A DNA stretch of 46,813 bases from an uncultured Candidatus Peribacteria bacterium (GCA_964585825.1 CAZPFH010000001.1:1-46813), one strand, 5' to 3'; positions 338 to 38,730 are shown, counted from the first letter of the stretch. The notes: generated by a model not told the origin, from the sequence alone. Program-made: numbers and translations.

Positions 338-442
338 ATGAAGCACCATTACCTTTATAAAAAATTGCAACGATTTGTGTGCGGAATGCTGATTCCCATG
401 CTTCTTGCAAGTCAGCTTGTTATTCCTTCAACGGTGCATGCT
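338..442 (+). other. Signal peptide of the giant protein (cleavage after VHA, before QF)
   Basis: Basic n-region MKHHYLYKKLQR, hydrophobic core FVCGMLIPMLLASQLVI, then PSTVHA-Q. Confidence 0.7.
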
Positions 443-15785: not shown

Positions 15786-16405
15786 AAAACACAATAAAAA
15801 AATGTCTACAAATCGGCATTCTTATCATAACAGTGAGTCTATTCATCTGTTATGCATCGATCATATCACGTGCGAATTCAACTATAAATCCGTACGATAC
15901 ACCGGATAAAACCATTCAAGAAGTTGAGAAATCTTATCATAAACGTATTAATGAAATATTTAACGCCAAGTTAACTCTTTTAAAGCAAGGAGAAGATGGT
16001 AATGGTACAACCGAAATACCAAAAAATGATGAATGTAGCGAAAACAACTACAGTACTTATTGTTTAGCTATGACAGTCGCCAAAGAATATGATCTCTATA
16101 ATGCCGCCCTCGGGAAAAGGAAGGCGGTTACAAATCCGCAAGAAGAAGAAACCGTTGATCAATTGGCACTTCGTACTATCGCCGAACACAATGAAATAAA
16201 AAATGAACTTGATAGATCAAAAAAAGCCCTTGATATAAGCATAAAGACGTATGATGAGCTTTTAGCTGCTTACCGTATGCATTTGCAATATGAAAAAATT
16301 ATTGAAAGTATAACAAAATATAATAAAAAGCTCATTGAGTTCCGGGAAGAAGTTGACAAATTACCCGGAAAATTCATTGATGCTACCACAACACAATGCA
16401 CCTAA
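15782..16405 (+). CDS. Small secreted or membrane-anchored helical protein P2 (about 207 aa), C-terminus ...TTTQCT*
   Basis: ATG 15782 overlaps the P1 stop as ATGA. The track's ATG 15776 lies inside the P1 Gln-Cys codons CAATGC. Hydrophobic N-terminus IGILIITVSLFICYASII. Confidence 0.7.
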   Translation: MKNTIKKCLQIGILIITVSLFICYASIISRANSTINPYDTPDKTIQEVEKSYHKRINEIFNAKLTLLKQGEDGNGTTEIPKNDECSENNYSTYCLAMTVAKEYDLYNAALGKRKAVTNPQEEETVDQLALRTIAEHNEIKNELDRSKKALDISIKTYDELLAAYRMHLQYEKIIESITKYNKKLIEFREEVDKLPGKFIDATTTQCT

Positions 16406-16410
16406 TAACT

Positions 16411-17886
16411 ATGAAAAAAATACTGCAATACATATCGATCATCTTTATTTACTCGTTTATTAGCATAAATGCAGCTTGTGCTGCCACAAGTCCCGTTGAT
16501 GAACTTATTGAGGAGTTTGAAGGTAAATCCAAAACAGCGCTTGCACAAGACATGTATCTGCAGATCTATAAAGATATAAATGATAAACCTAAAGAACAAG
16601 CTGCTAAAAACGTTTCCAGCACTTATTCAATGACTGAAGATCAAATCAATAAGCTTGTTCAAGAAGGAGATTTATCGGCTATTATAAAAGATGATAAAAA
16701 CGCGGATCTAAACAAAGTACTGTTACAATACCAGAAAATAGCAAATGATTACCAACGTACTTTAGAAACGGAAAATATCCGCAGTGAACTTACTATGGAA
16801 ACAAAGCCAAGCGAAGTATTCATGGATGGAGACACATCAAACTCAGAATTTGATATATTATATGATCTAACAATTATTGAAGTTATTTTATTTAATGAAG
16901 CCTCAACTAGTGAATTTGGCGGACAATTTACGGCCCCGGATTTTAATTTTACCGATGAAGAAGAAAAGAAGTTGATTGAAGAACTATTTGATACAACCTC
17001 AACGGATCAAACAACTCAACAAAGCGCTACCCAGAGCGATAACAGCTTTTCCGCTTTACAATGTTTAGGCGAAGAATCAGCGCTTAATGAAGCGCTTTCC
17101 GAATATGAAGATAGACAGAAAACAAACGGTGAAGAAGGAGATTCGTCCAATGAAGACTATCAAGGAGATGAGCCTGTAAATGCGGAAAACTTTCCAAAAG
17201 CGGAAAGCGATCCATGGCCATCAAAATATTTATGTCCTGACGGCGCCTTTTACTGCATAGATATCTCTTTCGATTTAAAAGCGGCAAAAGCACACGGAAA
17301 AACGGATAATTGCATTGCATGTCATGTGCAAAAAATAAATGAATCACTCGATAAATTATTAAGCAAACCTCTATCGGCAAACAAATTAACAGGAAACCTC
17401 TTAGAAGTACCAAAATGTAAGGCCTCGTATAGCAATATACCGGTAAATATGAATATTATTTTGCTTGCGGTTACACCTCCGCGACAAGCAAATCAAGATA
17501 AATATGTAAAATTGGATATCAATAAAGAATGGATAAATCTAAAAGAACGACTTAATGTCTTTTTCTACAATACTGACAACCCTCCACCCGAAACCAAACT
17601 TGAAGATAGAAGTGTCAAAGAGGCACTTCAAGCCGCACCCGATAATCCAAGCCTTAACAATGTTTCGTTACGAGCTTCCAATAGAACACAGCAAACACAA
17701 GAAAAAGTTACCGAAAATGCGGAGACAAAAAAACAAGAGAACAGGACGGAACTGAACAATACTGAATATCAAATGGTTATTAATGAAATGGAAACAATGA
17801 AGCAATCTTTTCAAACTATATTAACGAAATTAAAAGAAATGAAAAAGCCATGCAACAATATCGCCAATAAATCTTATTGCCAATAA
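16411..17886 (+). CDS. Secreted protein P3 (about 491 aa, possibly a lipoprotein), C-terminus ...PCNNIANKSYCQ*
   Basis: ATG 16411 gives MKKILQYISIIFIYSFISINAAC-A, a signal peptide with a non-canonical lipobox-like INAAC. The track's ATG 16396 again lies inside CAATGC of P2. An acidic T/Q-rich middle is followed by a Cys-rich block containing CIACH. Confidence 0.7.
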   Translation: MKKILQYISIIFIYSFISINAACAATSPVDELIEEFEGKSKTALAQDMYLQIYKDINDKPKEQAAKNVSSTYSMTEDQINKLVQEGDLSAIIKDDKNADLNKVLLQYQKIANDYQRTLETENIRSELTMETKPSEVFMDGDTSNSEFDILYDLTIIEVILFNEASTSEFGGQFTAPDFNFTDEEEKKLIEELFDTTSTDQTTQQSATQSDNSFSALQCLGEESALNEALSEYEDRQKTNGEEGDSSNEDYQGDEPVNAENFPKAESDPWPSKYLCPDGAFYCIDISFDLKAAKAHGKTDNCIACHVQKINESLDKLLSKPLSANKLTGNLLEVPKCKASYSNIPVNMNIILLAVTPPRQANQDKYVKLDINKEWINLKERLNVFFYNTDNPPPETKLEDRSVKEALQAAPDNPSLNNVSLRASNRTQQTQEKVTENAETKKQENRTELNNTEYQMVINEMETMKQSFQTILTKLKEMKKPCNNIANKSYCQ

Positions 17887-17889
17887 TAT

Positions 17890-18915
17890 ATGAAAAAAAG
17901 CATCATACGAAAAATAGGAACCATAGGAATACTTTTAATAGTAAGCGTTGCAACTCTGGGTACGGAACATGTTCGTGCACAAGAAACAACAATCTCATTA
18001 AACACTTCTTGCTTTACCGAATGGGATACGTTTATTTCTTCAACAATTTCCGTTGATGAGTTTTTAGAATACTGGACCGACATCCTGATCCGATATAATC
18101 GAAACACATGTTATTACATGGATATACAATATGTACTTAAGCAAATTGATACAACTCGTTCAGCCCTTCGCAAAGCCATTTTAGCATGTGACGATGACCA
18201 AGTTGGACCACTCAAAACACGTTTTTACGAATTGAAGTTAGAACTTGATTACCTGCGCTTATTTGTTTCTTTTGCAGATAAAGGAGGAAGACTTATTTCG
18301 GAAGAAAAAGTTTATAAACAATTAAAAGAAAAATATGTTGATACGGGTCTTGATTTTACCAAAGAAGAATTCGATATATTGTTCGACCGCTATCAAACAA
18401 AATATAAAGGAAACTTCTCATCAATATATCAGAGGTGTAGTGACGGAAGCATAAAGCAACTTGTAGACAGATGGGATAAACTTGTCGAGACCTTGAAATC
18501 AATGCAAGCAAGTTCAAAAGCGGTTAAAGCAGATTTCGACAGGGCGATTAACAAGCCGCCGCAAGGTATGCAGAATTTTATAAAAAATCTCGAACAAGCG
18601 CAAAAAGAATCAATAGAAGCACAAAAAAATCCTGAAGAAATTTTCAATCAAACAACGCAGGAAACCGGAACCGAACCAACTATTGATCAACTTACCGTTG
18701 CAATAGAAGAAAACAAACAAGATTATCAAGAAAAAATACAACAGGCGTCGTTAACCGCAAAATACGAAGCCTTGTATAAACATGGTGGAGATAGCCTTGC
18801 CGAGAGCTATGAAAAGGTATTAAAGGATCTTGATAAGATAGTAAAAGACTCTTACAAGCCACTGGAAGACCTTAAGCGATGTGCTAAAGAGTCTGCCGAT
18901 CGACAATGCCAATAG
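17890..18915 (+). CDS. Small secreted helical protein P4 (341 aa), C-terminus ...RCAKESADRQCQ*
   Basis: The ATG is 3 nt after the P3 stop. Signal peptide IGILLIVSVATLGTEHVRA-QE. 6 Cys in the mature part. The operon terminator follows. Confidence 0.75.
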   Translation: MKKSIIRKIGTIGILLIVSVATLGTEHVRAQETTISLNTSCFTEWDTFISSTISVDEFLEYWTDILIRYNRNTCYYMDIQYVLKQIDTTRSALRKAILACDDDQVGPLKTRFYELKLELDYLRLFVSFADKGGRLISEEKVYKQLKEKYVDTGLDFTKEEFDILFDRYQTKYKGNFSSIYQRCSDGSIKQLVDRWDKLVETLKSMQASSKAVKADFDRAINKPPQGMQNFIKNLEQAQKESIEAQKNPEEIFNQTTQETGTEPTIDQLTVAIEENKQDYQEKIQQASLTAKYEALYKHGGDSLAESYEKVLKDLDKIVKDSYKPLEDLKRCAKESADRQCQ

Positions 18916-24993: not shown

Positions 24994-26775
24994 ATGGCTA
25001 AAAAGACTTCTGCCAAGCCGGATATAGAAAAAATGAGGCATTCATGCGCACACGTGCTTGCACAGGCGGTTTTGCAAATGTTTCCCGAAGCAAAGCTCGG
25101 TTTCGGACCGGCAATTGAAAACGGTTTTTACTATGATTTTGAGCTGCCCCGCACGCTTATCCCTGAAGACTTACCTCTTTTGGAAAAGAAAATGAAACAC
25201 ATCATTAAGCAAAATCAGAAGTTTAAAATGATGGAAAAGCCTATTGATAAATCGATTACATTTTTGAAAAAGATTAATCAAGATTATAAAGCGGAAGCTG
25301 CACACGACCTACAAAAAGAAGGTTTTGACAGCATTACATTCTACGAAAATATAAATCAAAAAGGCGAAGGCACCTTTGTTGATATGTGTGAAGGCCCTCA
25401 TCTGGAAAGTTCCGGGAAAATAGGGGCCTTTAAATTAACACATACAGCCGGTGCTTATTGGCGCGGAGATGAAAAAAGACCTATGCTGCAACGTATTTAC
25501 GGCGTTTGTTTTGCGACAAAAGAAGAGCTTAATACGTATTTAAAACAACTTGAAGAAGCCAAAAAACGTGACCACAGACGGCTTGGAACCGATCTTGACC
25601 TTTTCATGTTCGATGAAGAGGTAGGCGCGGGTCTTCCGTTATGGCTGCCAAAGGGGGCCTACGTACGACATAAAATCATGGATTTTGCCTTTAACACCTA
25701 CTTGGCAAACGGTTATGAACCGGTATGTACCCCTCATATTGCCAATGTTGCATTATGGAATCATTCCGGCCATTTGGACTTTTACGGAGATAGCATGTAT
25801 GGATCGCTTACGATTGATGAAGATGAATATCGATTAAAACCAATGAATTGTCCCTTACACGTTAAAATGTATAACGCCTCTATGCGCAGTTATCGCGATT
25901 TACCGTTTAGATGGACGGAAATGGGTACCGTCTATCGTTACGAACGAAGCGGGACGCTTCACGGCCTCACACGGGTACGAGGATTCACACAAGATGACGC
26001 GCATATTATCTGCAGACCGGATCAACTGAAAGAAGAACTTGAAAAAGCACTTGATTTAACGCTCTATATTTTAAATACATTCGGTTTCAAAGATATTGAA
26101 ATGAATGTAAGTGTCCGTGATCCGGAAAATAAAGATAAGTTCATTGGAGAAGATGATCGATGGGAACAAGCGGAAAACACATTAAAAGAAGTTTTGGAAA
26201 AATCCGGATTTAAAGATTATGTATACGATATTGGAGGAGCCGTTTTCTACGGCCCAAAAATCGATGTTAAAGTAGCCGACTCAATAGGTAGAAAATGGCA
26301 GCTTTCAACTATTCAATTCGATTTCAATCTTCCTTCTAGATTTGGAATGACTTACGTGGGAGAAGATGGAGAGGATCATACCCCGTTTATGATTCACAGA
26401 GCTTTACTGGGCTCTCTTGAACGCTTTATTGGTGTTTTGATTGAGCACTACGGAGGTGCCTTCCCGGCATGGCTGGCCCCAACACCAATCGTCTTCGTTC
26501 CGGTTGCGGAAACACATGAAGCTTATGCGCAAAAAATGCTTGAGAAGTTTAAAGAAGCGGGCATAAAGGCAGAGATTTACCTTTCGGATGACACATTGGG
26601 GAAACGAATCAGGAATGCGGAAATGAAAAAAATACCGTACATGGCCGTTGTCGGTGACAAGGAAGTAAAAGCAAAAAGTCTTGCCATTCGCAGCTATAAA
26701 ACGAAAAAACAAGAAACCGTTAAGGCCGATAAATTCTTATCTACTCTTCAAAAAGAGATAGCTGATCGTGCTTAG
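24994..26775 (+). CDS. thrS: Threonine--tRNA ligase (lacks the N-terminal TGS domain)
   Basis: 593 aa. It starts directly at the editing-domain motif MRHSCAHVLAQA. It has a class II core (FRWTEMGTVYRYERSGTLHGLTRVRGFTQDDAHI) and a C-terminal anticodon-binding domain. Confidence 0.95.
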   Translation: MAKKTSAKPDIEKMRHSCAHVLAQAVLQMFPEAKLGFGPAIENGFYYDFELPRTLIPEDLPLLEKKMKHIIKQNQKFKMMEKPIDKSITFLKKINQDYKAEAAHDLQKEGFDSITFYENINQKGEGTFVDMCEGPHLESSGKIGAFKLTHTAGAYWRGDEKRPMLQRIYGVCFATKEELNTYLKQLEEAKKRDHRRLGTDLDLFMFDEEVGAGLPLWLPKGAYVRHKIMDFAFNTYLANGYEPVCTPHIANVALWNHSGHLDFYGDSMYGSLTIDEDEYRLKPMNCPLHVKMYNASMRSYRDLPFRWTEMGTVYRYERSGTLHGLTRVRGFTQDDAHIICRPDQLKEELEKALDLTLYILNTFGFKDIEMNVSVRDPENKDKFIGEDDRWEQAENTLKEVLEKSGFKDYVYDIGGAVFYGPKIDVKVADSIGRKWQLSTIQFDFNLPSRFGMTYVGEDGEDHTPFMIHRALLGSLERFIGVLIEHYGGAFPAWLAPTPIVFVPVAETHEAYAQKMLEKFKEAGIKAEIYLSDDTLGKRIRNAEMKKIPYMAVVGDKEVKAKSLAIRSYKTKKQETVKADKFLSTLQKEIADRA

Positions 26776-28873
26776 AAACTTCAGTTTCTTCAACATCAGG
26801 CTCAGGAGGAGCAAGGTATGAATCTTTGATAGTTTGCAATTTGGCAAGTAAGCCGGATGGTCCTTTGTGAGCTATAAAATAAATTTCTTCCAATAAGCCC
26901 CGAATAGCAGAATATTGTTCTTGATTATATTCAAGTAATTGATGTATTGATGCGTAATCTTCAAATTCTTCTTGCAAATCGCTTATCCTCGCAAATATAT
27001 CTGTTAATTCAACCACTTGCGAACCGGAAAGCATTTTATGTAAAGAATATATTTTGCGTACCAATGCATCATCTTTAATTTTTTCACCATATCGACAACA
27101 CAAATAGTAACTTTTTCGATTTAAGTAATGTGCTTTCAATTTATTCAGGTAAATCTCTATCTCCTCTAAGGCTTGTGTTATTTTTTTCCCTGCAGATCGC
27201 CGTTGCAATAATTCTACAATAATCTCTTGTGTTTGCTGATTGTTGGTTGTTAATCTATCAATGATTTTTTTTGCCACCATTTCTTTCATAAACGGTACTT
27301 TTTGCATTTTAGCTCCAAAAGTTATCTCGGCAAGTTCACGCATCTCCGGTGCATCGTGAGGAAACGCATATCGATTTACAAAAACATCACACAGATTAAG
27401 CGTATCGGCGGCAAAATTAATTCCTACACCAAGCACCTTTTGCGCCTTTAAAATTTTCTTTCTGCGATATTCGGCAACATCAGCTTCATAACTTCCTTCC
27501 GGCACATGACACAAAGCCTGACACTCATACATATATGACTTTGATTTTTCCCTCAAGCCTCCGTCGGCATGCCGATCAACAAAAACAGATCCTTTCCATT
27601 GAAGAGCCCGATGAATCCGTCCACTTTTTTCATTAATGCCGTAACCGGTATTAATCGAATTGCGTACATTTCGCTTATCAACCGTTGTACCAAAACGCAT
27701 CATAACTATTGCTAAAAACTTTGTCGCAGAGGCAATTTCAGCAACTTCAACAGGTACATTTTTATAGTGCGGATGCGAATTACGCGGATCTTCAAGCAAG
27801 TAACCTCTGAATCTATGTCTATCCGAGGTTGTATGTGCGTGCGGAGCAACATCATCATTTAATAATTTCGTGATAAATTTAAGGTATTCACTTTCGGGAT
27901 CTTTTGAATTAAAATCGATTTTATTGAGAATCAAACTGTTGGGTCCTATTTTGCCATCTTCTGTCGGATTAACCAAAACCGCATCACCACCCAAATCGAC
28001 ACAAATATCTCCTATACGTCTTCGTATTTCCTTCATCACCATATTGGTTTCTTTACGACAAATCGTGCCATCAATCATATGAATGGCATACATAAGACTT
28101 GCCTTAACAAAGGCTCCATGTTTTTTCTCCCAACTGCTAACCGTATCTCCACGTTCTTCATGCCATACTTTCTGCAATACGCTCAAATCGTTGTTTTGTT
28201 CAATATTCTCACAAAAATAAACCGTATTGTCATCTGTAAAAAGCTTCGATACTTGATTTGCTTTCTCTGCACAATATTCAAGTTGTTCTACAGCCTCTTC
28301 TTTTGTCAAATCTTCACTTTCAACGGCACTATGCCACAATTCGACCAAATCAACCGATTTAATCGCTGTTTCTCGTAAAAGTAAGTTTGTAACATACGGT
28401 TGAATAGGATTTGGCCATACATATGACATAAGCGCGTCAGCCAAGTCGGAATAATCATCTTCGGAATAACTCACCGTGCGCTGCATAGTTGTACATATGC
28501 GCTCAACAAGAGCTTTTAATTGATCACGTAACAACCGGTATGAAGGAATTTCATCACGCAAGTAAGAAAATGTTTCTTTTGCATATGTGGGGACAATATC
28601 AAAAAATTTCAATGATGTCGGCCGATCGTCTTTTTTTGTTATCAGTGATCTATTTAACAGTTCTTCTCTAAGGGATTTAGTAAATTGCTTAAAATCTCGT
28701 AAATCTTTTTCATTTTTCTTCTCCGCAGCACGAGTAGAGCAATTCACTACATCAATCGCATTTTGCATTGGTAAATCTCTGGACATATCCGGATAATCAA
28801 TCATTTTACATTCAAGAGGCTCAGAACCTGAGGCCCGGTCGATTATAGCAGATGTATCTTCTTTGTCACGCAT
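26741..28873 (-). CDS. Large soluble ORFan (about 710 aa) ending in ...DQLSLFEE*; last gene of the ORFan operon
   Basis: Long ORF with no signal peptide or TM helix. The track start 28882 is TTG; the first ATG is 28873 (MRDKEDTS...). The 3' end overlaps thrS by 35 nt, tail to tail. Confidence 0.75.
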   Translation of the reverse strand: MRDKEDTSAIIDRASGSEPLECKMIDYPDMSRDLPMQNAIDVVNCSTRAAEKKNEKDLRDFKQFTKSLREELLNRSLITKKDDRPTSLKFFDIVPTYAKETFSYLRDEIPSYRLLRDQLKALVERICTTMQRTVSYSEDDYSDLADALMSYVWPNPIQPYVTNLLLRETAIKSVDLVELWHSAVESEDLTKEEAVEQLEYCAEKANQVSKLFTDDNTVYFCENIEQNNDLSVLQKVWHEERGDTVSSWEKKHGAFVKASLMYAIHMIDGTICRKETNMVMKEIRRRIGDICVDLGGDAVLVNPTEDGKIGPNSLILNKIDFNSKDPESEYLKFITKLLNDDVAPHAHTTSDRHRFRGYLLEDPRNSHPHYKNVPVEVAEIASATKFLAIVMMRFGTTVDKRNVRNSINTGYGINEKSGRIHRALQWKGSVFVDRHADGGLREKSKSYMYECQALCHVPEGSYEADVAEYRRKKILKAQKVLGVGINFAADTLNLCDVFVNRYAFPHDAPEMRELAEITFGAKMQKVPFMKEMVAKKIIDRLTTNNQQTQEIIVELLQRRSAGKKITQALEEIEIYLNKLKAHYLNRKSYYLCCRYGEKIKDDALVRKIYSLHKMLSGSQVVELTDIFARISDLQEEFEDYASIHQLLEYNQEQYSAIRGLLEEIYFIAHKGPSGLLAKLQTIKDSYLAPPEPDVEETEVSKHDQLSLFEE

Positions 28874-28880
28874 AAACCCC

Positions 28881-28920
28881 AAAAAAAAGAAATAGGAACC
28901 TATTGTAACATTATAGGCCT
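28881..28920 (-). terminator. Hairpin plus T-run between the 1233-aa and 713-aa genes (internal terminator or attenuator candidate)
   Basis: On the minus strand, AGGCCTAT, a 9-nt loop, then ATAGG-TT-CCT (8 bp with a 2-nt bulge), followed by ATTTCTTTTTTTT. It begins 5 nt after the upstream stop. Confidence 0.4.
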
Positions 28921-28925
28921 ATTTG

Positions 28926-31900
28926 TCAAGCCGCTCGTTTACCTTTGTCTTCGTCGGGCAACGATGAACTGACCGCTTCCGGATCATACTCATACATTCG
29001 TGCTTTATTTCTAAACAAATCTTCCTTTGTTGCACCAATAGATGTTTCTATTAAGAACTTATGATTTTTAATAATATCGATCATTTTTTCTCCGGTAAAT
29101 CTATCCTTTTTATTATCGGGAACCTGATCTTCGTGGATCATTTTTTCAAATCGTGCGCCAAAAAATTCTATAGCAGATTCAGGGGCTCCTTTTTTAAACG
29201 GTGACTCTGTAATCTCGGGATCTTTTCCATGGCCATATGCATTCGCAATCTCTTGTATCAAGCCTTTCATTTCTTCCTGATACCGACGTAGAGGTCTGTT
29301 TGCATCCCATACGCAGCCGGTCTGGTAATCACTCGAGCTCAGTCGCTGCAATGCCGCCCCACGCTTTTTACGGTAGCGATTATCCAAAATTCCATCGAAA
29401 TGTATATACGACTTAAACGCCGTAATCAATTTTTGCAAGTATGCACTTGAGAACCCAACCTCACCGCTTTGTTCATAATATTTTTCCTTATCATGTTGAT
29501 CAACAAGAGCTTGCATACGCATTCCAAAACCAACATACCCATTTTTATATCCCTGAATTGTAAACTTTTTCGTATCACCACCTGTTGATGCGCATATGGA
29601 TTCAATTTCGGATTCTTTCAAATTAGGAATAATGTATGGCGAATCATCATGATCCATATTTTGCGCATTTCTAATACCTTTTTCCAAACGGTTCTGCACC
29701 GCATCTGTTGTTAATATAGTATTTGTCAAGAAAGCTTCAACATCATCTTCCGGAGCAAAAAATCCTTTTGCATGTCCATCCCCCACCCATTCGGAAACCA
29801 ATCTGTCAAAATCTGATCTAACAAACGGCCGAGGTTCGTTATCTGCATTAACCAAAAAATCTCCTGTAAAAAAGTCTCGTTTCGGGTCACTGTTACTTGC
29901 ACTGAAAAAATCCAATGCAGGGAATTGATTTGAATATTTACTAACAAAGCGCCCTACACGCTCCCATCCCAGAATAGTTTTTCCATCAGGATTTTTTGCG
30001 TTTACTCCCATCAAAAGATAATAAATTTTATCTTTACCCGATGCTTTTCCCGCTTCGATAATAAATCGCAACATACCTTCATATTCAGTCGGATCGATCC
30101 ATTCTCCATGCATATGACGAGTCAACATATTTGAAAGTTCTTTTGAAATACCACCGACATTTTTCGGATCATTCTCAAGCTCTTCACCTTTATTATAAGA
30201 TTCTTGTATAGCGCTTTCTATAGCCCCATCACTTTGGCGCTTCCATCCGACATATGAACCTTCACCCCAAATAGAATCCATTGAATCCTGCAAGAAATCC
30301 ATAACGTTTTTCCCTTCAAGAGGTTCTCCGTTAAACATTCCGCTTCCTTTTTCGAATTTCTTATATGGATCACCAGCCGGGATAGGAAGTTTATGATTAA
30401 TATCCGCAAATTTATTAAGCGTATGATACAACTCCTTGCTATCCCATCGAATCATTCCCTTTTCAGCCAACACATTCAAACATGCTTTTGCCTGATCTTG
30501 ATTATCGGTGCTATATAACGTTTCTTCAATTTGAGGCACGCCCCATTGGTCCATCGCTTCTTTAAACTGACTAACCTCTTCGGTTTCGGCCTGCTGATTA
30601 ATTCGATCAAATTCCGTTCCAAACCATGGAATGTGTTTACCTACTTCGGAATATCTCGATTTCTGCCTGCGTTGCCAGTTACGAGTATAATATTCCCACC
30701 CGCTTTGAAACATTTTAAAGACATCATCCAATCGTAACCACTGCGTATCACGAAGCCACTGTGCAATTTTACTGTAACTTTGTTTCTCCACACCAACCGA
30801 TTTATCTTCTCTGAATTTCACTTCGGGCTCAAAAATACCTTTAATTCCTTTTTCGCGGAGCTTTTGCAACGTGTCCCTCCATGTTCCGGTTTCCTGAAAA
30901 TATTCAATCGTTTTTTGCGCATCTTCCTTGGCACGTTCACGCGATTTTTTTCCCGCATTAAAATACAGTTCCATTTTTTTAGCCTCCAAATCGGGATCGA
31001 ACGGCTCAATATCGTTTTCATATACCCATCGTAAGAACTGCGGAAATGTAAATTTTCTTTTATTTTTAAGTTGAATTTCACCTTTTAATTCATCAACATA
31101 CTCCACTTCAAAAAGAGGATTTCCGGGAGCATCCGCATGCAAAATTTCTCCGGGTTCCATTTTTATAGGCATATGGCAGTCTTTTTGTCTTTTATAGTTT
31201 TTATTCATATACTCATAATGCTCATGCAGTCGATCAAGCAATGTCGAAAATCGCATTTTCGGTACCGGCCTAAAACGGTTCATCCATTTTGCAAATTCAC
31301 CAAGAGTAAAATCATCCTTATATTCATGATCAGACAGATCCGGACTATCATAAAACGAGCGATATAAAACTTTCTTATCAAGTTTCACGCCATAGTCATC
31401 AATTGAAACAACTTTAACCTTTTGCACATCTGCATATGGTTTATTTGTTTTCGGATCAATAGTCATCACATCATACTCAAGCGTATCCCCCGCCTTAACG
31501 GTTATATTCATTTCGTTCAAATGAGAGATATTGTTCGACAATTCCTTTTGTTTTTTAACAACCGGCTTTATATCATGCAAATTCACAAAATCACGTAATC
31601 TGTTGGTAGACATGCGATGCACACGTCCGGTCCCTTTTTCCTCAAGAGCAACCCATACGCCACTCATTAAGATTTTTTCTTCATCTTTTTTATTTTCCGG
31701 ATCAGGATTGCGTTTTTGATCAACAAAGACTTCTTTAATTATCCATCTCCGAGGATATTCTTCGATAAACGGGCTATCTTCTTCAAATCCTTTTTTCATT
31801 CGCAATCCTAAGCCTTTTAGCTCCTGTCCTTCTCGAAGCGGGATACCCGCTCGTCGACCTGCGGAACGAATCATTCTCTCTTGAATTGCCTTCCGTTGAA

Positions 31901-32627
31901 ACGTTTTATGCATATCCCACATAACTTCACGCACACCATCAATTACTTTCAACATTGCAAATTCGTTTATTGCTATTTGATGTGCATGTTCGGCGAGATT
32001 ATGCGCACATTCTTTAATTTTATGAATATCGGGCGCTTTATCGCTTTTTCTTTTCCAAATATTAATAATGCTTTGCCGGATAGCGCTTTCTGTATCGGAC
32101 GGCATCATTGATGAATTAAACTCGTCATTATTACGCAATTGATTTTTCCCGAATTCGGGAACCGTTCTGTAAACGGTTTGCCATAATTCTTCTTTCGACT
32201 GATTATCAATCTTGCCCATTTTTCCAATCAAGTCATCAATTGAATCGTTAACCTTCTCTTCCAATTCTTCCAATACGGGATAATAATCATTGACTACTTC
32301 ACGAGCCTTTTGCAATTTTTCCGGATCTATATCGGCCGGAAATTCATATTCCCATGTATCAAGTACTGTATGTGCCTTTTCAGCGGTTCGAACCGTAATT
32401 CTATCGATCTCATTTTCTTCTGCCGTTGAAGCATCGTTTTTCTCCTTTTCTTTCTGTTGCTCAGCACGCTCGTTTTGCTCAGCTTGCGTTGAGGAATCAA
32501 TGTCGGCTTTGTTATCATCCTTTTCAGCTGCAAAAAAGACTATACGTCGCTCCTCCCACCATGGAGAAGCAGTAGTATAACAATGGCTTAACAAATCCGG
32601 TTTTTGCTCACTGTATAATCGTTTCAT
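28926..32627 (-). CDS. Very large soluble ORFan (1233 aa)
   Basis: ATG start, no signal peptide or TM helix. Acidic low-complexity stretch near the N-terminus (EQNERAEQQKEKEKNDAS). No catalytic or P-loop motif found by eye. Confidence 0.8.
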   Translation of the reverse strand: MKRLYSEQKPDLLSHCYTTASPWWEERRIVFFAAEKDDNKADIDSSTQAEQNERAEQQKEKEKNDASTAEENEIDRITVRTAEKAHTVLDTWEYEFPADIDPEKLQKAREVVNDYYPVLEELEEKVNDSIDDLIGKMGKIDNQSKEELWQTVYRTVPEFGKNQLRNNDEFNSSMMPSDTESAIRQSIINIWKRKSDKAPDIHKIKECAHNLAEHAHQIAINEFAMLKVIDGVREVMWDMHKTFQRKAIQERMIRSAGRRAGIPLREGQELKGLGLRMKKGFEEDSPFIEEYPRRWIIKEVFVDQKRNPDPENKKDEEKILMSGVWVALEEKGTGRVHRMSTNRLRDFVNLHDIKPVVKKQKELSNNISHLNEMNITVKAGDTLEYDVMTIDPKTNKPYADVQKVKVVSIDDYGVKLDKKVLYRSFYDSPDLSDHEYKDDFTLGEFAKWMNRFRPVPKMRFSTLLDRLHEHYEYMNKNYKRQKDCHMPIKMEPGEILHADAPGNPLFEVEYVDELKGEIQLKNKRKFTFPQFLRWVYENDIEPFDPDLEAKKMELYFNAGKKSRERAKEDAQKTIEYFQETGTWRDTLQKLREKGIKGIFEPEVKFREDKSVGVEKQSYSKIAQWLRDTQWLRLDDVFKMFQSGWEYYTRNWQRRQKSRYSEVGKHIPWFGTEFDRINQQAETEEVSQFKEAMDQWGVPQIEETLYSTDNQDQAKACLNVLAEKGMIRWDSKELYHTLNKFADINHKLPIPAGDPYKKFEKGSGMFNGEPLEGKNVMDFLQDSMDSIWGEGSYVGWKRQSDGAIESAIQESYNKGEELENDPKNVGGISKELSNMLTRHMHGEWIDPTEYEGMLRFIIEAGKASGKDKIYYLLMGVNAKNPDGKTILGWERVGRFVSKYSNQFPALDFFSASNSDPKRDFFTGDFLVNADNEPRPFVRSDFDRLVSEWVGDGHAKGFFAPEDDVEAFLTNTILTTDAVQNRLEKGIRNAQNMDHDDSPYIIPNLKESEIESICASTGGDTKKFTIQGYKNGYVGFGMRMQALVDQHDKEKYYEQSGEVGFSSAYLQKLITAFKSYIHFDGILDNRYRKKRGAALQRLSSSDYQTGCVWDANRPLRRYQEEMKGLIQEIANAYGHGKDPEITESPFKKGAPESAIEFFGARFEKMIHEDQVPDNKKDRFTGEKMIDIIKNHKFLIETSIGATKEDLFRNKARMYEYDPEAVSSSLPDEDKGKRAA

Positions 32628-32663
32628 GATTTATCTTTGACAGATTATGTTTTTGTTATTTTA

Positions 32664-34943
32664 TTAAAGCTTGACCAATTTTGCAACCTTATTTGATTTA
32701 CCCACAATATCTTCGGCTTTGTCTCCGGCAGCTTTTTTAAATACTTGCCCGAGAATTTCTTTTCGTTTGTCATCATCCGTAATTTTAGTTTTCAAAGCGG
32801 TATCTGCAGCTGCAAGTTTTTTCTCAAGATCCTGCACTTGCGTTGTATCGTTCACGTCTTTTACCGATTGTGCGGAAGTTCGTACTTGTGTGAGTTGCGG
32901 ACTGGCCGTGTTGATCTTTTGCAATCGCCCAAGTTCATCCTTGTGATCTTTTTGTATTTGAGCATCAATTTTATTTACTTCATCAGTGTTTCCTGATGCT
33001 GCTGCATTAATGCGACGTTCTTGTAAATTTTTCAGATCTTCACTTACCTCAACACCATTTTGTTTAGCGGTGGTAACCGTCGACGTCGGATTTGACGCAT
33101 TGACTTGTGTAGGTGCGCCGCCCGCTGCTGCTCCACCTGCTGCCCCGCCACCTGCTCCCGTCCCTGGCGGCGTTGGGCGGTTGCGTTGCGACGACGTTCT
33201 GCTTGGCGCAACAGCTTGCATCGCTCTGGAATTTTTTATTTTTTGTATAGTGGTAGGACTTAATTTACCTTGCGCAAATTGCTTTCGTTCTTCTTTGCTT
33301 AATTTTCCTAACACTCCCTCTGCTAAACGAGATTGTCCCGGTATTCCCTTTCTTTCTTTCCATTCTTGTAACATTTTATATGCTTCACGTTGCCCCGAAC
33401 GTGTTTGCAACCCACTCAATACAGCTCGACGCCCTTCTTCCGGCGTACTTTTTTTCGACCTTGCAACATTTCTAATTTCTCGCAAAGACATATTCGGGCT
33501 TTCCTTTTGCGCACCATATTTTTTCTCTAAATCTTCAAAAGGTTGTCTGATTCTTCCCATAGCTTGTTTATAAGACTCTCCTTTCCCTCCTGGTCCTGAT
33601 GGAATAATTGGCACTAATTTAAGCAAGTTGGTAGCTCCACGCCCCATTGCCCCAACTTTTTCTTTAATACCTGCTGTAAACCGTTCCGCAATAGTTCCTT
33701 CGGCAGCGGCAAATACGCCCACCCATACAACGGCAACCGCAGCAAAAGCAATAATCATAGATTGCAAATCTGAAATACCAGATGCTTCCACCTTCACCAT
33801 ATTAAATGCTGTTGATAACGAGATGTCGTTTTCGGTCCCTGCATTCTTGAAGGCATCAAGGATCAAGTAACCGATAGTCAATGGCACACCCATTAAAAAC
33901 GGTGCAAACGCATTTTTGAAAAACTTATTCTGCAATTCTCCGCCCGCACTTGGAATCAAATTAGGAATAACAAGCGCTAAGGCAATAAATGGGGAAAGTG
34001 CTATAAACAGCCACAGTGCAACCAAACGTGCTAACAATACAACAAACAATGCTATATATGCAGCGCCGTACACAACGTATAAAATAACGGAAAAAAGCAA
34101 GTTAAAGGCTAAACTCGACAAATCCTTGCTGGCGGCCGCGCTTACCTTATCAACATCCAACACGTTCATAAACTGAATAGCCATAACCAATCCGGCATTA
34201 CGAGAATTATATCGAGCAAAAAACTTCTTTCCGGCATCCTGCAACGTATAGCTTCCCCCCTCAAGTGAACATAAAATATTTTCTTTCTTTCCCGCCTCTT
34301 CTTTACTGAATCTTTGTTCAAATTCTTTTTCATTGCCATAATATGCCGTACAAATTTTCTTAACCATTTCCTTATCTTTTACGGTACAATTTTCCGCTTT
34401 TTGATCTTCACATTCTAAAATTTCCGGATTAACTCCGGTACTTATAGTGCTCGGAAGTGTAAATACAGCCGTAGTAGCTACATTTGTAACATCAAGAATC
34501 ACCTTCATTCCAATATATGAGAAATTAACCGCTATCAACGCTATCGCAAATTTAGGTAAAAATGTTTTAATTGCATACTCGCTATCCGGCTTAATGGCCA
34601 AAACATTGAACAGAGCAACACCCAGCAAAATAATGACAAACCCAATATTCACAATATTTCTCATTTGCACCCATACCTGCAATAAACGTTCTTCCATACC
34701 GTAACCAAACAATATATCGTTATTAAGCAATCCTCCTATAGCAAGAAACATCGGCCATAAAATTCGTTGCAATACTTTTAACACCACTGTTAAAAATTGC
34801 CCGAACTTTCCTAAGAATTCACCCAATACGCCACTCATTTGTCCGGTCACACTCTGAGCAAACGCCGTCAAAGGGAATGCCAGAAGAATAATAAGCACAA
34901 GGATCAGTATGTATTTAAGTTTTATTTTTGGTTTTCTTTTCAT
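32664..34943 (-). CDS. Polytopic membrane protein (759 aa) with a signal peptide, about 8 TM helices, a 4-Cys loop and a roughly 330-aa disordered tail; VirB6/TrbL-like topology
   Basis: Signal peptide KYILILVLIILLAFPLTAFA-Q. TM runs include IVNIGFVIILLGVALFNVLAI, FAIALIAVNFSYIGMKVIL, LLFSVILYVVYGAAYIALFVVLLARLVALWLFIALSPFIALALVI and MIIAFAAVAVVWVGVFAAA. The tail contains PTPPGTGAGGGAAGGAAAGGAP. Confidence 0.8.
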   Translation of the reverse strand: MKRKPKIKLKYILILVLIILLAFPLTAFAQSVTGQMSGVLGEFLGKFGQFLTVVLKVLQRILWPMFLAIGGLLNNDILFGYGMEERLLQVWVQMRNIVNIGFVIILLGVALFNVLAIKPDSEYAIKTFLPKFAIALIAVNFSYIGMKVILDVTNVATTAVFTLPSTISTGVNPEILECEDQKAENCTVKDKEMVKKICTAYYGNEKEFEQRFSKEEAGKKENILCSLEGGSYTLQDAGKKFFARYNSRNAGLVMAIQFMNVLDVDKVSAAASKDLSSLAFNLLFSVILYVVYGAAYIALFVVLLARLVALWLFIALSPFIALALVIPNLIPSAGGELQNKFFKNAFAPFLMGVPLTIGYLILDAFKNAGTENDISLSTAFNMVKVEASGISDLQSMIIAFAAVAVVWVGVFAAAEGTIAERFTAGIKEKVGAMGRGATNLLKLVPIIPSGPGGKGESYKQAMGRIRQPFEDLEKKYGAQKESPNMSLREIRNVARSKKSTPEEGRRAVLSGLQTRSGQREAYKMLQEWKERKGIPGQSRLAEGVLGKLSKEERKQFAQGKLSPTTIQKIKNSRAMQAVAPSRTSSQRNRPTPPGTGAGGGAAGGAAAGGAPTQVNASNPTSTVTTAKQNGVEVSEDLKNLQERRINAAASGNTDEVNKIDAQIQKDHKDELGRLQKINTASPQLTQVRTSAQSVKDVNDTTQVQDLEKKLAAADTALKTKITDDDKRKEILGQVFKKAAGDKAEDIVGKSNKVAKLVKL

Positions 34944-34967
34944 GAATACGTAATAATGAATAAATAA

Positions 34968-36422
34968 TTAGCTGAAAATCGAGAACGCACCGGCCAACCC
35001 AATCGTCCCTCCGATACCGGCGAAATACCATTTGGCAACTTTGAAAATCAGGCTTTTTTGTTTTTTTTCATGTTCTTTCTTGAGATCTCCGGGGCTTTTT
35101 CTTTTTTTACCTCTCAATTGAGCAGTCCCTTTTTGCTTTTCTTCATCTCTTTTACGCAACCTTGCTTCCAATTCCCTTTTAGATTGCATAACAGATTGTT
35201 GATATTGACGTTGCTGTTTTGTTATTTTGGTTTCCTCGGTTTCCTCTTTAGAAGAACCTTTTTCCCCAATTATAGGTATGTACGGCGGCGGCATCACACC
35301 CTCTTTCGGAGCAGAAACAGTTGCTTGCCCGGGAACAAAACCTGTGATTTTCCTATTTTCCGGCAATGAAACGGGTCTGCGATCTCCTTGTATTTTTCTT
35401 CCCGTGATCGGTATATCAAATAGCTTTGCACCGCGAGGCCCCGCTTTGCGAGAGTACACCTCTTGTGCTGATATATTTTTGCCAAATGTCGATTGCAGTT
35501 CATTTTCCTCAACAAAAAATTTCTTATCGGGATTATCTGCAAATGTCATGCGATACATTCGTTTTCCCGGCTTTTTCACATCGAATTCAATACGAAGACG
35601 TGTGTTGTTCTTATCTTGCACAAAACCGCGTGCTATGCCGTTAGCGTCTATATTCATGCGCGCTTCAACATACAATCCGTTTCGCTCGAGCTTCTTTTCA
35701 TCTCCAATAGCTTGTTTATTCCATAACACTTGTTGTACTTGCTGCATGCTTGAACTTGTTTCCTGCCTGTTTTCATCAACGGTTAAGGGATTGAACATAA
35801 ACATCCGCGTTTCCCCCGAAGTGGTTTCTTCCGTTTTATGTTCTGCAAGAAGCTGAGCAGTTTGCTCAACATTTCCCAATGCTCTGGCAATTTTTTTATC
35901 CGACAAATAATCAAATTCTCCATTTTCTTTTCGTGCAAGAGCCAATTTCCCTTCTTCCAATGCCGCTTTATTTTCAGCCGCTTCTTCTTCGGAAATATTA
36001 CCAAGCAATCGTTTATGATGTATTTCACGATTTATCAAAGCATCTTCCAAACTATTAACTGCATAAAATGCAAGTTTTTCCAAATTTTTCCGTGCATCTT
36101 TCGAAAAAGTGCCGGTTTTTTCATCAGGCAACATACGGAATGAAAGCTTTGCATCACTGCTATTTGCCACTAGTTTTTGGCGATCTACGAAGTCACTGAA
36201 TTCTCGCCAAAAAACTTTTCGCAAATCCGCATCTTTTTGCAAAATAGTTCCCGTATCCTGAAAATAATAATCTTCCAACCCTTGTCTTTCATCGGGACGA
36301 AGCACCTTGTCAAAACGAAACATTTTTTGTAATCGTGGATCATTCGGCAAATTACCCAGAATTTTATTCTGAATATACGGTAATAAGAACGAATTTACGA
36401 ATCCTGAACCGAGTTGCTGCAT
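34968..36422 (-). CDS. Tail-anchored ORFan (484 aa)
   Basis: Soluble N-terminal roughly 400 aa, a K/E/Q-rich linker, and a single C-terminal hydrophobic helix VAKWYFAGIGGTIGLAGAFSIFS*. Confidence 0.75.
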   Translation of the reverse strand: MQQLGSGFVNSFLLPYIQNKILGNLPNDPRLQKMFRFDKVLRPDERQGLEDYYFQDTGTILQKDADLRKVFWREFSDFVDRQKLVANSSDAKLSFRMLPDEKTGTFSKDARKNLEKLAFYAVNSLEDALINREIHHKRLLGNISEEEAAENKAALEEGKLALARKENGEFDYLSDKKIARALGNVEQTAQLLAEHKTEETTSGETRMFMFNPLTVDENRQETSSSMQQVQQVLWNKQAIGDEKKLERNGLYVEARMNIDANGIARGFVQDKNNTRLRIEFDVKKPGKRMYRMTFADNPDKKFFVEENELQSTFGKNISAQEVYSRKAGPRGAKLFDIPITGRKIQGDRRPVSLPENRKITGFVPGQATVSAPKEGVMPPPYIPIIGEKGSSKEETEETKITKQQRQYQQSVMQSKRELEARLRKRDEEKQKGTAQLRGKKRKSPGDLKKEHEKKQKSLIFKVAKWYFAGIGGTIGLAGAFSIFS

Positions 36423-36436
36423 TATTTAATATATTA

Positions 36437-38131
36437 TTATGTTTGTTTTGATTTCTTTTTTGGCTTAGCACGCATAGCGGTCGGTTTTGATCGTACTCCT
36501 TGCCTGTACAAGAAAAGATCATGATATTTCACATTACGTTTTGTTGTTTTTCTATAAAATGCGGCCGTTGTGTTTATTCCCAAACTATAAGCCGCTAAAG
36601 TACTGTCAAATATCATTTGTTCAACGGCGGCTTTTCCATACAGACGTTTTGCTTCTCGTAACCGTGTTGCTCCACGCTTATTTCCTCGAGTACGTTCAAC
36701 GTATTCCAAAAGCTCTTCGTATAGTCCTTTTTGCGGATCATTTTTTATTTTTTCTCTCTGTTTTGTGGTAAGCATTTCAGACTTAAGCTTAGTACGATCA
36801 AAGCGTTTTTTTGAATAAAAGCCCCATAAATCATCGAAACCTTTATTGTTTAAAAGCCAATCTTCTATAACCGTGTGATCCGCACAATTAGAAGCTAAAC
36901 GTTTCATATGGTCATCTTGTTTTTCCGCTTTCTCGCTGGTTCCAAACGGATTATCGAGACGTCTTGGCTTTGAGATGAATTTATCAAAAACACCCACACC
37001 TTTTCCGGGATGCAAAGAACCACTAAATGCATGATATCCTCCGGCAGCCACACCGGCACTCAGCAAAAAATACGGACTTTTCAACCCATTGAAATATCGC
37101 CCTATTCCTTTTCCATCGCTAATACCCGCCATATAATTCGTAAACATTCCCAATGCCCCTATGCCGGTAACAATCGCAGCTCCGATTGATTTTCTGTTCA
37201 AAATACGTTCAGCAGCATTTATTGCCAATGGATTTTGTAGATTTTTCCGTATTTCTTCTGTTAAAATACGCGACTGTCTTCGTCTTTCACGAATCAATTT
37301 TTCTTCTTTTTTGGATCGCACATAATTCGAGCCTGTAACTTCAGTCATGAAAACTTCATGCTGCTTTAAACTTATAACATTGGCTTGTACCATTTGATCG
37401 GCAAGTTTTCCGGATTCATTACTTCCATATCGATCATTAAATTCACGCAACAACTGCATTCGCTGATGTGGATTCATCATTCGTACAAAAAAAGCGCTGG
37501 CGCTCAATTTCAGTTGCGTAGCCGAAGTAGAAATTTTCATTTTAGCAGATTTGATATTTTTGCATAAAACATCCCAATCTTCCTTTCTCAAAGTATCTTT
37601 TTGGATATGTGCAAAAATTTCACCGATTTTAATATTTTTACTATATAAATTGGAAATATTATCAAGCAATGTATAAAAATAGGCATAATCGCCAACTTCT
37701 ATTTTCCCGTTGTAGCCGGCTAAACATCGTACAGCATAGAGCACCGCTTGTTGATATCTGGTTATGTTTTCTTTAGCCTGCTCAGTTTCTGTTTTAACAC
37801 GCTCCAAAAAACGAGCGTAATCCTCTTTATTGTCATATGAGGCAAACATATCATGTAATTTCTCGAGGACTCCTTCCTGCTGCTTTTTCAATTTCTTTTC
37901 AACAATTTCTTCAAATCTTTTTTGGCGCAAGCTGGGTCTGTCACCGCCTTTATCACGAGCACCCAATGTCATTTTATTCATCTCTATTTTAAGCTTTCGA
38001 AGACTTTCTTTTGTATGCTCTTTTATAGCTTCTTTAACTTGCTTTCCGGTTTCCAAATGTCGTTTTTGATACTTTTCAGAAACATTTCCCGCAGTCGAAC
38101 TTGGCCTGTTTCTTTTTGACGGATTAGCCAT
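36437..38131 (-). CDS. ORFan (564 aa) with a central Gly-rich TM hairpin
   Basis: Basic, coiled-coil-like N-terminus. Hydrophobic segments IGAAIVTGIGALGMFTNYMAGI and YFLLSAGVAAGGYHAF. Basic C-terminus. Confidence 0.75.
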   Translation of the reverse strand: MANPSKRNRPSSTAGNVSEKYQKRHLETGKQVKEAIKEHTKESLRKLKIEMNKMTLGARDKGGDRPSLRQKRFEEIVEKKLKKQQEGVLEKLHDMFASYDNKEDYARFLERVKTETEQAKENITRYQQAVLYAVRCLAGYNGKIEVGDYAYFYTLLDNISNLYSKNIKIGEIFAHIQKDTLRKEDWDVLCKNIKSAKMKISTSATQLKLSASAFFVRMMNPHQRMQLLREFNDRYGSNESGKLADQMVQANVISLKQHEVFMTEVTGSNYVRSKKEEKLIRERRRQSRILTEEIRKNLQNPLAINAAERILNRKSIGAAIVTGIGALGMFTNYMAGISDGKGIGRYFNGLKSPYFLLSAGVAAGGYHAFSGSLHPGKGVGVFDKFISKPRRLDNPFGTSEKAEKQDDHMKRLASNCADHTVIEDWLLNNKGFDDLWGFYSKKRFDRTKLKSEMLTTKQREKIKNDPQKGLYEELLEYVERTRGNKRGATRLREAKRLYGKAAVEQMIFDSTLAAYSLGINTTAAFYRKTTKRNVKYHDLFLYRQGVRSKPTAMRAKPKKKSKQT

Positions 38132-38133
38132 AA

Positions 38134-38631
38134 TTATAATTTAAATACGCGAATAAGTGCATCGACAGCCGACTCTTCTTTCCCTTCTTCCTCCCGTATT
38201 TGAGAGCAAAGATATTCTCTTAATTCTACAGGATCTTGATCACCCAATTGAATTGCAATATCAGGCAAAACACGGGAATTTGATCTCAAATTAAGAGTCT
38301 TAACCATCGGTGGTTTATAAATAATCCAAAATGATTTGATATTTTGATAGGGATACTCTTTATCACCCACTTTTATCCCTTTTGCAGAAACGATTACTTC
38401 AATATGCTTTGGCATATTTCCATGCTGCCAAACATACACGGCTGACAGCAATATAAGAGCAATCAACAATGTCCAATTACTCGTTGCAATAGCATAAATA
38501 CACAACAAAAAATCAGCAATTCCCGCTGCCAAAAACCACTTCCACCCTTTTTCGTGCTGCACGTATTCCGGTGCTTCCCACCGAATATTATTGCTTTGAA
38601 TATAATCTGTTTTTTTTGTTTCGTTTTCCAT
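38134..38631 (-). CDS. Small membrane protein (165 aa): W-E-A-P-E-Y N-terminus, TM hairpin, soluble C-terminal domain
   Basis: RWEAPEYVQHEKGWKWFLAAGIADFLLCIYAIATSNWTLLIALILLSAVYVW. Its stop lies 2 nt before the next ATG. Confidence 0.7.
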   Translation of the reverse strand: MENETKKTDYIQSNNIRWEAPEYVQHEKGWKWFLAAGIADFLLCIYAIATSNWTLLIALILLSAVYVWQHGNMPKHIEVIVSAKGIKVGDKEYPYQNIKSFWIIYKPPMVKTLNLRSNSRVLPDIAIQLGDQDPVELREYLCSQIREEEGKEESAVDALIRVFKL

Positions 38632-38659
38632 CGCTAACTTTTATTTTTATTTTCCTATT

Positions 38660-38688
38660 ATTTTAGCATAAAATAGCGAACAATTCAA
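38660..38688 (-). promoter_or_regulatory. Sigma70-type promoter of the six-gene ORFan operon
   Basis: On the minus strand: TTGAAT, a 17-nt spacer ending in TGc, then TAAAAT. It lies about 29 nt upstream of ATG 38631 and downstream of the purL stop. Confidence 0.45.
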
Positions 38689-38730
38689 TGTTCACCATGC
38701 TTTGTTTTTACTCATTCTACAAGAAACAGC

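Follow-up and report, generated by a model that had tools for sequence, protein, structure and literature searches.

Proteins of the VirB6/TrbL family (PF04610) are polytopic inner-membrane platforms of type IV secretion systems (T4SSs), such as TrwI of R388, ConG of ICEBs1 and the enlarged RvhB6 paralogues of Rickettsia, and many TrbL proteins carry a long C-terminal extension behind a linker rich in Gly, Ala and Pro. Bacteria that belong to the Candidate Phyla Radiation are thought to live off other cells; their envelope machinery is little known, and conserved operons without an assigned function are common in their genomes. In a 2025 survey of Patescibacteria, the T4SSs of this group are described as related to the MPF-FATA (mating-pair formation) conjugation machinery of monoderms, while in the class Gracilibacteria T4SS genes are dispersed and VirB6 homologues are "absent", "suggesting extreme sequence divergence" (PMC12102498). 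With VirB6 undetectable and the T4SS genes dispersed there, the survey leaves room for a very divergent VirB6 encoded away from virB4, although this class may not include the genomes studied here. We have analysed a stretch of 46,813 nucleotides (nt) from an uncultured Candidatus Peribacteria bacterium (GCA_964585825.1, CAZPFH010000001.1:1-46813), referred to below as the window, which contains a run of six minus-strand genes, g1 to g6, the first five of which make up a conserved block. By the standard of curated knowledge this block is far from every described system, and its sole link to known biology is a fold likeness of the g4 product that stays below significance. We tentatively favour, at somewhat less than an even chance, the reading in which g1-g5 encode a vertically inherited membrane platform built around a VirB6-like g4.

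The five genes g1-g5 are genuine, and the block they form is vertically inherited and belongs to the core genome rather than to a mobile or defence island. Their order and orientation are kept in more than 20 loci of Peregrinibacteria and Peribacteria, among them contigs of 356 kb, 1.20 Mb and 1.37 Mb; the scan for related loci was built from a 9-sequence alignment. Complete genomes with the block are OY969931.1 (1.37 Mb), JGI Ga0233431_1000001 (1.20 Mb) and PNNO01. All loci with enough flanking sequence have, in this order, g1, a protein of about 490-610 amino acids (aa), a protein of about 270-500 aa, g4 and g5, and in nearly all of them the block is followed by convergent thrS and then by recF, PrsW and uvrA, a chromosomal position that is constant among relatives down to about 30-35% identity. 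Upstream, the neighbouring gene differs between loci, being purL, rpsF, proB or an HNH-endonuclease-like open reading frame (ORF) brought in by insertion, and no extra conserved gene was found 5' of g1, where the upstream ORFs are proB, rpsF or HNH insertions; since this neighbour changes while the order of the five genes stays, g1-g5 behave as one unit. Every named source of a relative is a metagenome-assembled or single-amplified genome of Peregrinibacteria, Peribacteria, "Gracilibacteria" or Patescibacteria, and no relatives were found in the phage, plasmid and IMG/VR viral-contig collections. The ratio of nonsynonymous to synonymous substitution rates (dN/dS), calculated against the locus L013 (79-85% identical at the protein level), is 0.08-0.12 for each of g1-g5. 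The G+C content is uniform along the window, the composition of the block is host-like, and no integrase, relaxase, tRNA or flanking repeat was found at the block. These observations bear out two proposals of the first-pass annotation of the window, namely that the locus has no mobile-element hallmarks and is a lineage-specific core module rather than a defence island. The same annotation had described a six-gene operon and suggested that its synteny be followed in other genomes: in the relatives g1-g5 are indeed co-conserved and co-oriented, but the sixth slot is variable or empty, and the conserved unit is one of five genes. The block is present in every Peregrinibacteria/Peribacteria relative recovered, occupies about 12 kb of a genome of 1.2-1.4 Mb and evolves under strong purifying selection, so that its importance to the cell is almost certain.

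In the distant loci the proteins of the second and third slots are unrecognisable by BLAST or hidden Markov model (HMM); the slot-2 proteins keep a central hydrophobic hairpin rich in Gly and Ala, and the slot-3 proteins a C-terminal Gly-rich anchor, which is retained in L008, L010, L020 and L022 despite sequence divergence. In L009 a g4 homologue, the most distant one, lies beside gyrA in a different arrangement: after g1 come a protein of 1008 aa with hydrophobic hairpins in its centre, a basic protein of 187 aa and then g4; no g5 was found near this g4, and a 1.2-kb stretch there is without a long ORF.

The g4 product has at least 49 relatives (about 640-820 aa, with one 493-aa partial sequence) down to 32% identity, and its AlphaFold2 model, calculated from 48 homologues, has a mean predicted local distance difference test score (pLDDT) of 79.3. 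As in the first description of this protein, a signal peptide (residues 1-29) precedes a multi-helix transmembrane core, and the helix pattern and the loop are seen in both the model and the hydropathy profile: the helical core spans residues 36-443, with helices at 36-73, 83-114, 125-167, 275-325, 333-369, 390-414 and 420-443. The VirB6/TrbL architecture has at least five transmembrane helices, a large central loop outside the cytoplasm and a C-terminal extension inside it. Residues 275-325 of g4 could be either one long helix or two transmembrane helices, and the side of the membrane on which the loop domain (residues 168-272, mixed alpha/beta in the model) is found hinges on this alternative. 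The loop had been characterised as external and containing four Cys; two of these, C198 and C225, lie in the loop domain and are invariant in the 48 homologues, but the remaining two are not. Also invariant are R95, N99, N140, D151 and R306, which all fall, by hydropathy, within hydrophobic transmembrane helices. The tail, in contrast to an earlier description as 330 aa of disorder, contains two confidently modelled helical domains (residues 487-575 and 619-756, pLDDT about 93-97), and disorder is limited to the Gly/Ala/Pro linker of residues ~578-614 that joins them.

A Foldseek comparison of the g4 model, which had been suggested as a check, returned a phage protein and a TrbL/VirB6-annotated protein, both at E about 0.02. 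In BFVD, a database of predicted viral structures, the top match is gp153 of Bacillus phage G (E 0.019, probability 1.00, target-normalised TM-score 0.58), followed by an entry annotated as "TrbL/VirB6 plasmid conjugal transfer protein" (E 0.022, probability 0.91); a further TrbL entry has E 2.1 and probability 0.38. Nothing significant was found in the PDB (best E 1.5), where two chains of the R388 T4SS stalk/inner-membrane complex (8rtd_L and 8rtd_H), at a probability of about 0.2, are among the few matches that high, and are not significant. The Pfam family matched by the largest number of g4 members is TrbC/VirB2, the T4SS pilin, with weak hits in 3 of the 48 (best E 0.016). We infer from the model that g4 resembles VirB6 by predicted fold only. 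The tail has weak matches of the F-BAR/BAR type: PACSIN in a PDB profile search (E 0.03), and eisosome Lsp1/Pil1 (probability 0.18) and the ACAP4 BAR domain in Foldseek.

The remaining members agree with the membrane association first proposed for the assembly, as four of the five core products have membrane anchors, and the fifth is large and cytosolic. Hydropathy profiles show the transmembrane hairpins of g1 and g2 and the tail anchor of g3 that had been read from the sequence. The g1 product consists of an N-terminal W-E-A-P-E-Y motif, the hairpin (residues 30-68) and a soluble domain of ~95 aa; its identities are 55-76% in a six-way alignment, and no other small member of the block is as well conserved. 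An HMM still recognises it in L008, L009, L020 and L022, the most distant loci, and its Pfam matches are all sub-threshold (DUF6232, E 0.0012). A basic helical N-terminal region of ~310 aa, a Gly-rich hairpin (residues ~314-372) and a conserved C-terminal domain of ~190 aa make up g2, which is fast-evolving (34-62% identity within the clade). The g3 product, also fast-evolving, is a soluble protein that has a basic linker of low complexity and ends in a Gly-rich tail anchor (residues ~462-484). Searches with PDB profiles found nothing for g2 or g3.

The cytosolic member, g5, belongs to a large family: an HMM search of 1.84 billion cluster representatives retrieved 549 at E≤1e-3 and 194 at E≤1e-30. 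A word-indexed search found 10 relatives, and its repetition gave the same 10 proteins, leaving the alignment no deeper. The protein has an acidic helical N-terminus, a long helix, three repeats (residues ~269-544), each of a small beta-barrel followed by an "F..F..W" helix, and an all-alpha C-terminal region whose conserved core (residues ~615-1200) is the portion common to the family. Among 40 diverse members K714, G724, D784, G860, G874, R980, D992, D995 and G1033 are invariant, H993 and D994 are at least 90% conserved, and E672, E681 and E683 are nearly invariant; the D-H-D-D motif formed by residues 992-995 stands out as the strongest candidate site for metal binding or catalysis. The AlphaFold2 model of residues 200-1233 is poor (pLDDT 58) because only seven sequences were usable for its alignment, and its Foldseek matches (tandem Tudor/SAWADEE with probability up to 0.54, alpha-solenoids up to 0.69) indicate a fold class only and are otherwise unusable. 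A search of PDB sequences gave no match for g5.

No significant match was found in Pfam, NCBIfam, PHROGs or PADLOC for any of the six products, and PDB sequence-profile searches with g1-g6, deep profiles included, gave coiled-coil noise only. No recurrent family emerged when the 48 g4 homologues were searched one by one in Pfam, NCBIfam and PHROGs, or 40 diverse g5 homologues in Pfam, and no member matched a transporter, stator, flippase or divisome family in Pfam or NCBIfam. Sensitive profile searches, which might have assigned the products to known families, thus did not do so in any of these collections. As to the first description of the products as ORFans, it is correct that none has a curated family, but with 549 cluster representatives for g5 and at least 49 relatives for g4 they are not isolated sequences. 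The reported lack of a Walker A P-loop stands in substance: two strings do fit the pattern [AG]xxxxGK[ST], at residue 877 of g5 and residue 743 of g4, but the Lys is not conserved in either family, the homologues reading GRT, GET or HET, and for this reason there is no credible P-loop in the block.

The slot after g5 is of a different nature. A first type of protein (type A) is found in the window, in L001, L003/L011 and L017, and at 25% identity in L002, where it is split from g5 by an IS200 transposase. In L006 and L007 the slot holds instead a 511-523-aa protein unrelated to type A (type B), whose C-terminal half corresponds to Pfam RelA_SpoT (PF04607; E 4e-8, 33.9 bits against a cut-off of 27, and E 6e-4) and whose N-terminal region of ~300 aa matches no recognised type. 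In L005, L008, L010, L015 and L019-L023 the slot is empty and thrS comes directly after g5. The view that no recognisable enzyme is encoded here thus applies to the six window products, but not to the sixth slot of two relatives. Type-A g6 has no family or PDB match, and the window protein and its orthologues do not match PF04607 at E≤0.1-1. The possibility that type A is a diverged RelA/SpoT enzyme was rejected, as hhalign gave it a probability of 0.2-0.3% with full and trimmed alignments; an E-x-Q...A-E-Y likeness of types A and B recognised by eye was also aligned by hhalign, at a probability of 0.3%. RelA/SpoT-fold enzymes can serve as toxins, as in toxSAS and the type VI secretion effector Tas1, and the type-B proteins could be either housekeeping alarmone synthetases or toxin-like enzymes. 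Since the slot is variable or empty in relatives and a strong promoter-like site is present in the g5-g6 spacer, g6 is an accessory gene outside the conserved set, probably separately transcribed and maybe unrelated to the block. Insertions are seen on both sides of g1-g5: an IS200/Y1 transposase between g5 and g6 in L002, and HNH-endonuclease-like ORFs between purL and g1 in L010 and L019 (Table 1). The borders of the block appear to be permissive insertion points.

In the platform that we tentatively favour, g4 would sit at the centre of a cytoplasmic-membrane complex as a TrbL/VirB6-like oligomeric platform or conduit with a polar interior. The proteins g1, g2 and g3 would be held at the cytoplasmic face by minimal anchors (a transmembrane hairpin, a central Gly-rich hairpin and a tail anchor, respectively) and may recruit or tether g5, whose conserved acidic site would act on, or bind, whatever is handled. 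Most likely the whole would serve for translocation or exchange, as a platform that either descends from the inner-membrane core of type IV secretion or has converged with it; an energising ATPase, if there is one, would be encoded elsewhere.

Several observations weigh against this reading. All Foldseek E-values for g4 are at least 0.019, above the 0.001 line, and all-helical membrane bundles are prone to false fold matches. None of the 48 g4 members matches Pfam TrbL/VirB6 (PF04610) at E≤1, NCBIfam and PHROGs yield no recurrent T4SS family among them, and hhalign of the g4 profile to VirB6 of A. tumefaciens gave nothing (a phmmer search of PDB chains with the same VirB6 gave no match either, and in building a VirB6 profile from plasmids tblastn reached Rhizobiaceae relatives only, so that this approach was dropped). 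The other products g1, g2, g3 and g5 resemble no known T4SS part. Among the called genes within 10 kb on either side of the block in loci L001-L010 there are no Pfam matches to VirB4, type IV coupling protein (T4CP), VirB3 or VirB8, and in Pfam and NCBIfam the six window products include no VirB4-type protein (AAA_10/CagE), VirB3, VirB8, coupling protein or relaxase. We infer one complex of the g1-g5 products from the operon structure alone, and the quality of the g5 model does not allow an interpretation. The Peribacteria genome paper of 2016 has no mention of "VirB" or "conjugat", and neither the accessions of the block-carrying genomes nor the name "Peregrinibacteria" occurs in the available part of the supplement of the 2025 survey (PMC12102498).

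Every T4SS-directed sequence test having been negative, with no T4SS partner nearby, the block may alternatively encode an envelope or cell-biology complex that is particular to the lineage and has no relation to type IV secretion, be it a transporter, an ion-driven stator, a lipid or polymer machine, or a division or shape scaffold. Here g4 would be a channel or transporter, its VirB6 likeness that of a generic helical bundle, and the g4 tail, g2 and g3 would be membrane-shaping or scaffolding helices. The position in the core genome and the strong purifying selection are in keeping with such a complex, the invariant polar and charged residues within the transmembrane helices of g4 would be less usual in a passive scaffold than in transporters or stators, and the BAR-type matches of the g4 tail point in the same direction. 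These matches are, however, at the level of coiled-coil noise, no transporter, stator, flippase or divisome family was recognised, and the two best fold matches of g4, together with a further one, carry annotations that are either of VirB6/TrbL type or devoid of function. We regard a complex of this kind as a serious possibility, if on balance a doubtful one.

The variability of the sixth slot (type A, type B with RelA_SpoT, an added IS200, or empty) recalls polymorphic-toxin loci, and the fast evolution of g2 and g3 is often seen in host-contact proteins; the block could on these grounds be an effector or toxin delivery system with g6 as its cargo. But many genomes have no sixth gene, so the machine must be able to do without it; a promoter of its own appears to precede g6, and there is no immunity-like small ORF after it, because thrS overlaps its end. 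Moreover, types A and B have no relationship detectable by hhalign, the RelA_SpoT protein could be a plain housekeeping alarmone synthetase, and dN/dS is as low for g2 and g3 as for the other genes, so that delivery of g6 seems to us improbable. A remnant of an integrated conjugative element, prophage or defence island would explain why the fold matches of g4 are phage-encoded and conjugation-type proteins, and why some relatives have IS200 and HNH insertions where the block begins or ends. This origin is hard to reconcile with a position next to thrS-recF-PrsW-uvrA that is the same in relatives, with the uniform G+C and a dN/dS of about 0.1, or with the lack of integrase, relaxase, tRNA, repeats, PADLOC and PHROG matches and of phage, plasmid and IMG/VR relatives; it is very improbable, and close to refuted.

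The coordinates of the block and of the features discussed in the text are collected in Table 1. The ORF calls agree with the six minus-strand genes and with the spacings originally assigned to them; the intergenic gaps from g1 to g6 are, in order, 2, 14, 24, 36 and 43-52 nt, those within g1-g5 being 2-36 nt. The likely start of g6 is the ATG, because the orthologues align from the fourth residue of the ORF started at TTG, and the length given at first for this product, about 710 aa, corresponds to this start. On the same strand, upstream, are the housekeeping genes purL (called by sequence), rpsF, uppP, purH and that of an M23/LysM peptidase; thrS, recF, the PrsW protease gene and uvrA, also housekeeping genes, are downstream. 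The block had been placed between purL and thrS in a co-directional run of genes, which is accurate for purL but not for thrS: the latter is on the plus strand, convergent with the last gene, and for this reason is not part of the run. In the window thrS and g6 overlap tail-to-tail by 35 nt, and in relatives without g6 it is g5 that abuts or overlaps thrS in the same manner; there is therefore no space for intrinsic terminators between the convergent genes. No tRNA genes or Rfam matches were found in the window.

Table 1. Positions of genes, domains, signals and neighbouring features in the window and, where a locus is named, in relatives.
Feature	Coordinates	Strand	Description
g1	38134-38631	minus	165 aa ORF
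g2	36437-38131	minus	564 aa ORF
g3	34968-36422	minus	484 aa ORF
g4	32664-34943	minus	759 aa ORF
g5	28926-32627	minus	1233 aa ORF
g6 (type A), from TTG	26741-28882	minus	713 aa ORF
g6 (type A), from ATG	26741-28873	minus	710 aa ORF
g1 transmembrane hairpin	38428-38544		residues 30-68
g2 transmembrane hairpin	37016-37192		residues ~314-372, Gly-rich
g3 tail anchor	34971-35039		residues ~462-484, Gly-rich
g4 loop domain	34128-34442		residues 168-272
g5 beta-barrel repeats	30996-31823		residues ~269-544, three repeats
g5 all-alpha conserved core	29028-30785		residues ~615-1200
g5 D-H-D-D motif	29643-29654	minus	residues 992-995, conservation in 40 diverse members
Promoter-like site 5' of g1	38660-38688	minus	TTGAAT-17-TAAAAT, TG-extended, consensus score 9/12
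Promoter-like site, g5-g6 spacer	28902-28929	minus	TTGACA-16-TACAAT, TG-extended, sigma-70-like, score 11/12
Terminator-like hairpin, purL-g1	38673-38698	minus	10-bp stem then T-rich tract
thrS/g6 tail-to-tail overlap	26741-26775		35 nt
Giant surface protein gene	338-15247	plus	4969 aa ORF
ORFs after the giant gene	15237-18915	plus	182, 209, 496 and 341 aa
L002 IS200/Y1 transposase	10484-10930		between g5 and g6
L006 type-B slot protein	9852-11387		RelA_SpoT domain
L007 type-B slot protein	11606-13177		RelA_SpoT domain
L009 g4 locus	5834-12307		beside gyrA
L010 HNH-endonuclease-like ORF	5301-6251		between purL and g1
L019 HNH-endonuclease-like ORF	859-1863		between purL and g1

The promoter attributed to the operon is present as a sequence 5' of g1, but sites of this kind are found in the region at chance level (44, against 42.4 ± 7.2 expected from shuffles), and the g5-g6 spacer contains a better one, with the top score in the 15-kb region. 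Since the number of sites equals the shuffle expectation, the site upstream of g1 is a candidate only; the one in the spacer would fit separate transcription of g6 as an accessory gene. Between purL and g1 a hairpin was flagged as terminator-like, which overlaps the -35 element of the g1-upstream site and might end the purL transcript.

Elsewhere in the window, the single ORF of 4969 aa contains an SLH domain, Ig-like domains (Big_1, Invasin_D3, GH2_C5) and FG-GAP and TSP3 repeats, and its product probably acts as a giant surface adhesin anchored in the cell wall; in L008, recF is followed by a comparable protein with SLH and Big_5 domains, more than 4000 aa long. Straight after the giant gene are four overlapping or abutting ORFs with no Pfam match. 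A gene of 341-344 aa in a matching position, beside uvrA and an HTH_17 gene, recurs in L001, L005, L019 and L023. The window thus has a second conserved cluster of unassigned genes.

Extending the platform reading, the block might be an undescribed machine universal in Peregrinibacteria/Peribacteria, in which a VirB6-like channel without the canonical T4SS partners would work with four lineage-specific proteins, among which a cytosolic 1200-aa D-H-D-D enzyme or adaptor, to move macromolecules or metabolites across the envelope of reduced, probably host-dependent cells, driven by a remote ATPase or by a new kind of mechanism independent of any; in this full form we consider the proposal unlikely. 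Deeper structure work could reclassify the block as a radical T4SS variant, because in these bacteria proteins from known families have often diverged to an extreme degree. If g4 is a very divergent VirB6, it supplies the component reported to be undetectable in part of the Patescibacteria and shows how far the T4SS scaffold can be rebuilt; if its core is not VirB6-like, the block represents a new membrane system whose five protein families are all unannotated, one of them having more than 500 sequence clusters. Either way, g4, the D-H-D-D region of g5 and the anchors of g1-g3 are defined targets for structure prediction, metaproteomics and electron cryotomography.

These considerations can be summarised as a comparison with the systems described so far. 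Small alarmone synthetases and toxSAS enzymes (PF04607) share their domain with the slot proteins of L006 and L007, whereas g6 of the window is unmatched. The best structural match of g4, phage G gp153 (UniProt G3MBL9), is an uncharacterised phage membrane protein of 319 aa, but it is less than half the length of g4, 11% identical to it at E 0.019, and encoded by a phage rather than in a cellular core genome. The T4SSs of Patescibacteria occur in the same superphylum as the block, but the VirB4, TrsD, PrgI/VirB3 and VirB2 profiles that define them (PMC12102498) are unmatched by g1-g6; g1, with its transmembrane hairpin, is similar in size to VirB3, but matches no VirB3/PrgI model. From the VirB6/TrbL proteins g4 differs in having no sequence-profile match and no significant Foldseek E-value, in being encoded in the chromosomal core and not on a mobile element, and in having partners (g1, g2, g3, g5) without T4SS counterparts; it resembles them, by prediction, in its signal peptide or N-out start, its multi-helix transmembrane core, its large central loop, and its C-terminal extension behind a Gly/Ala/Pro linker.

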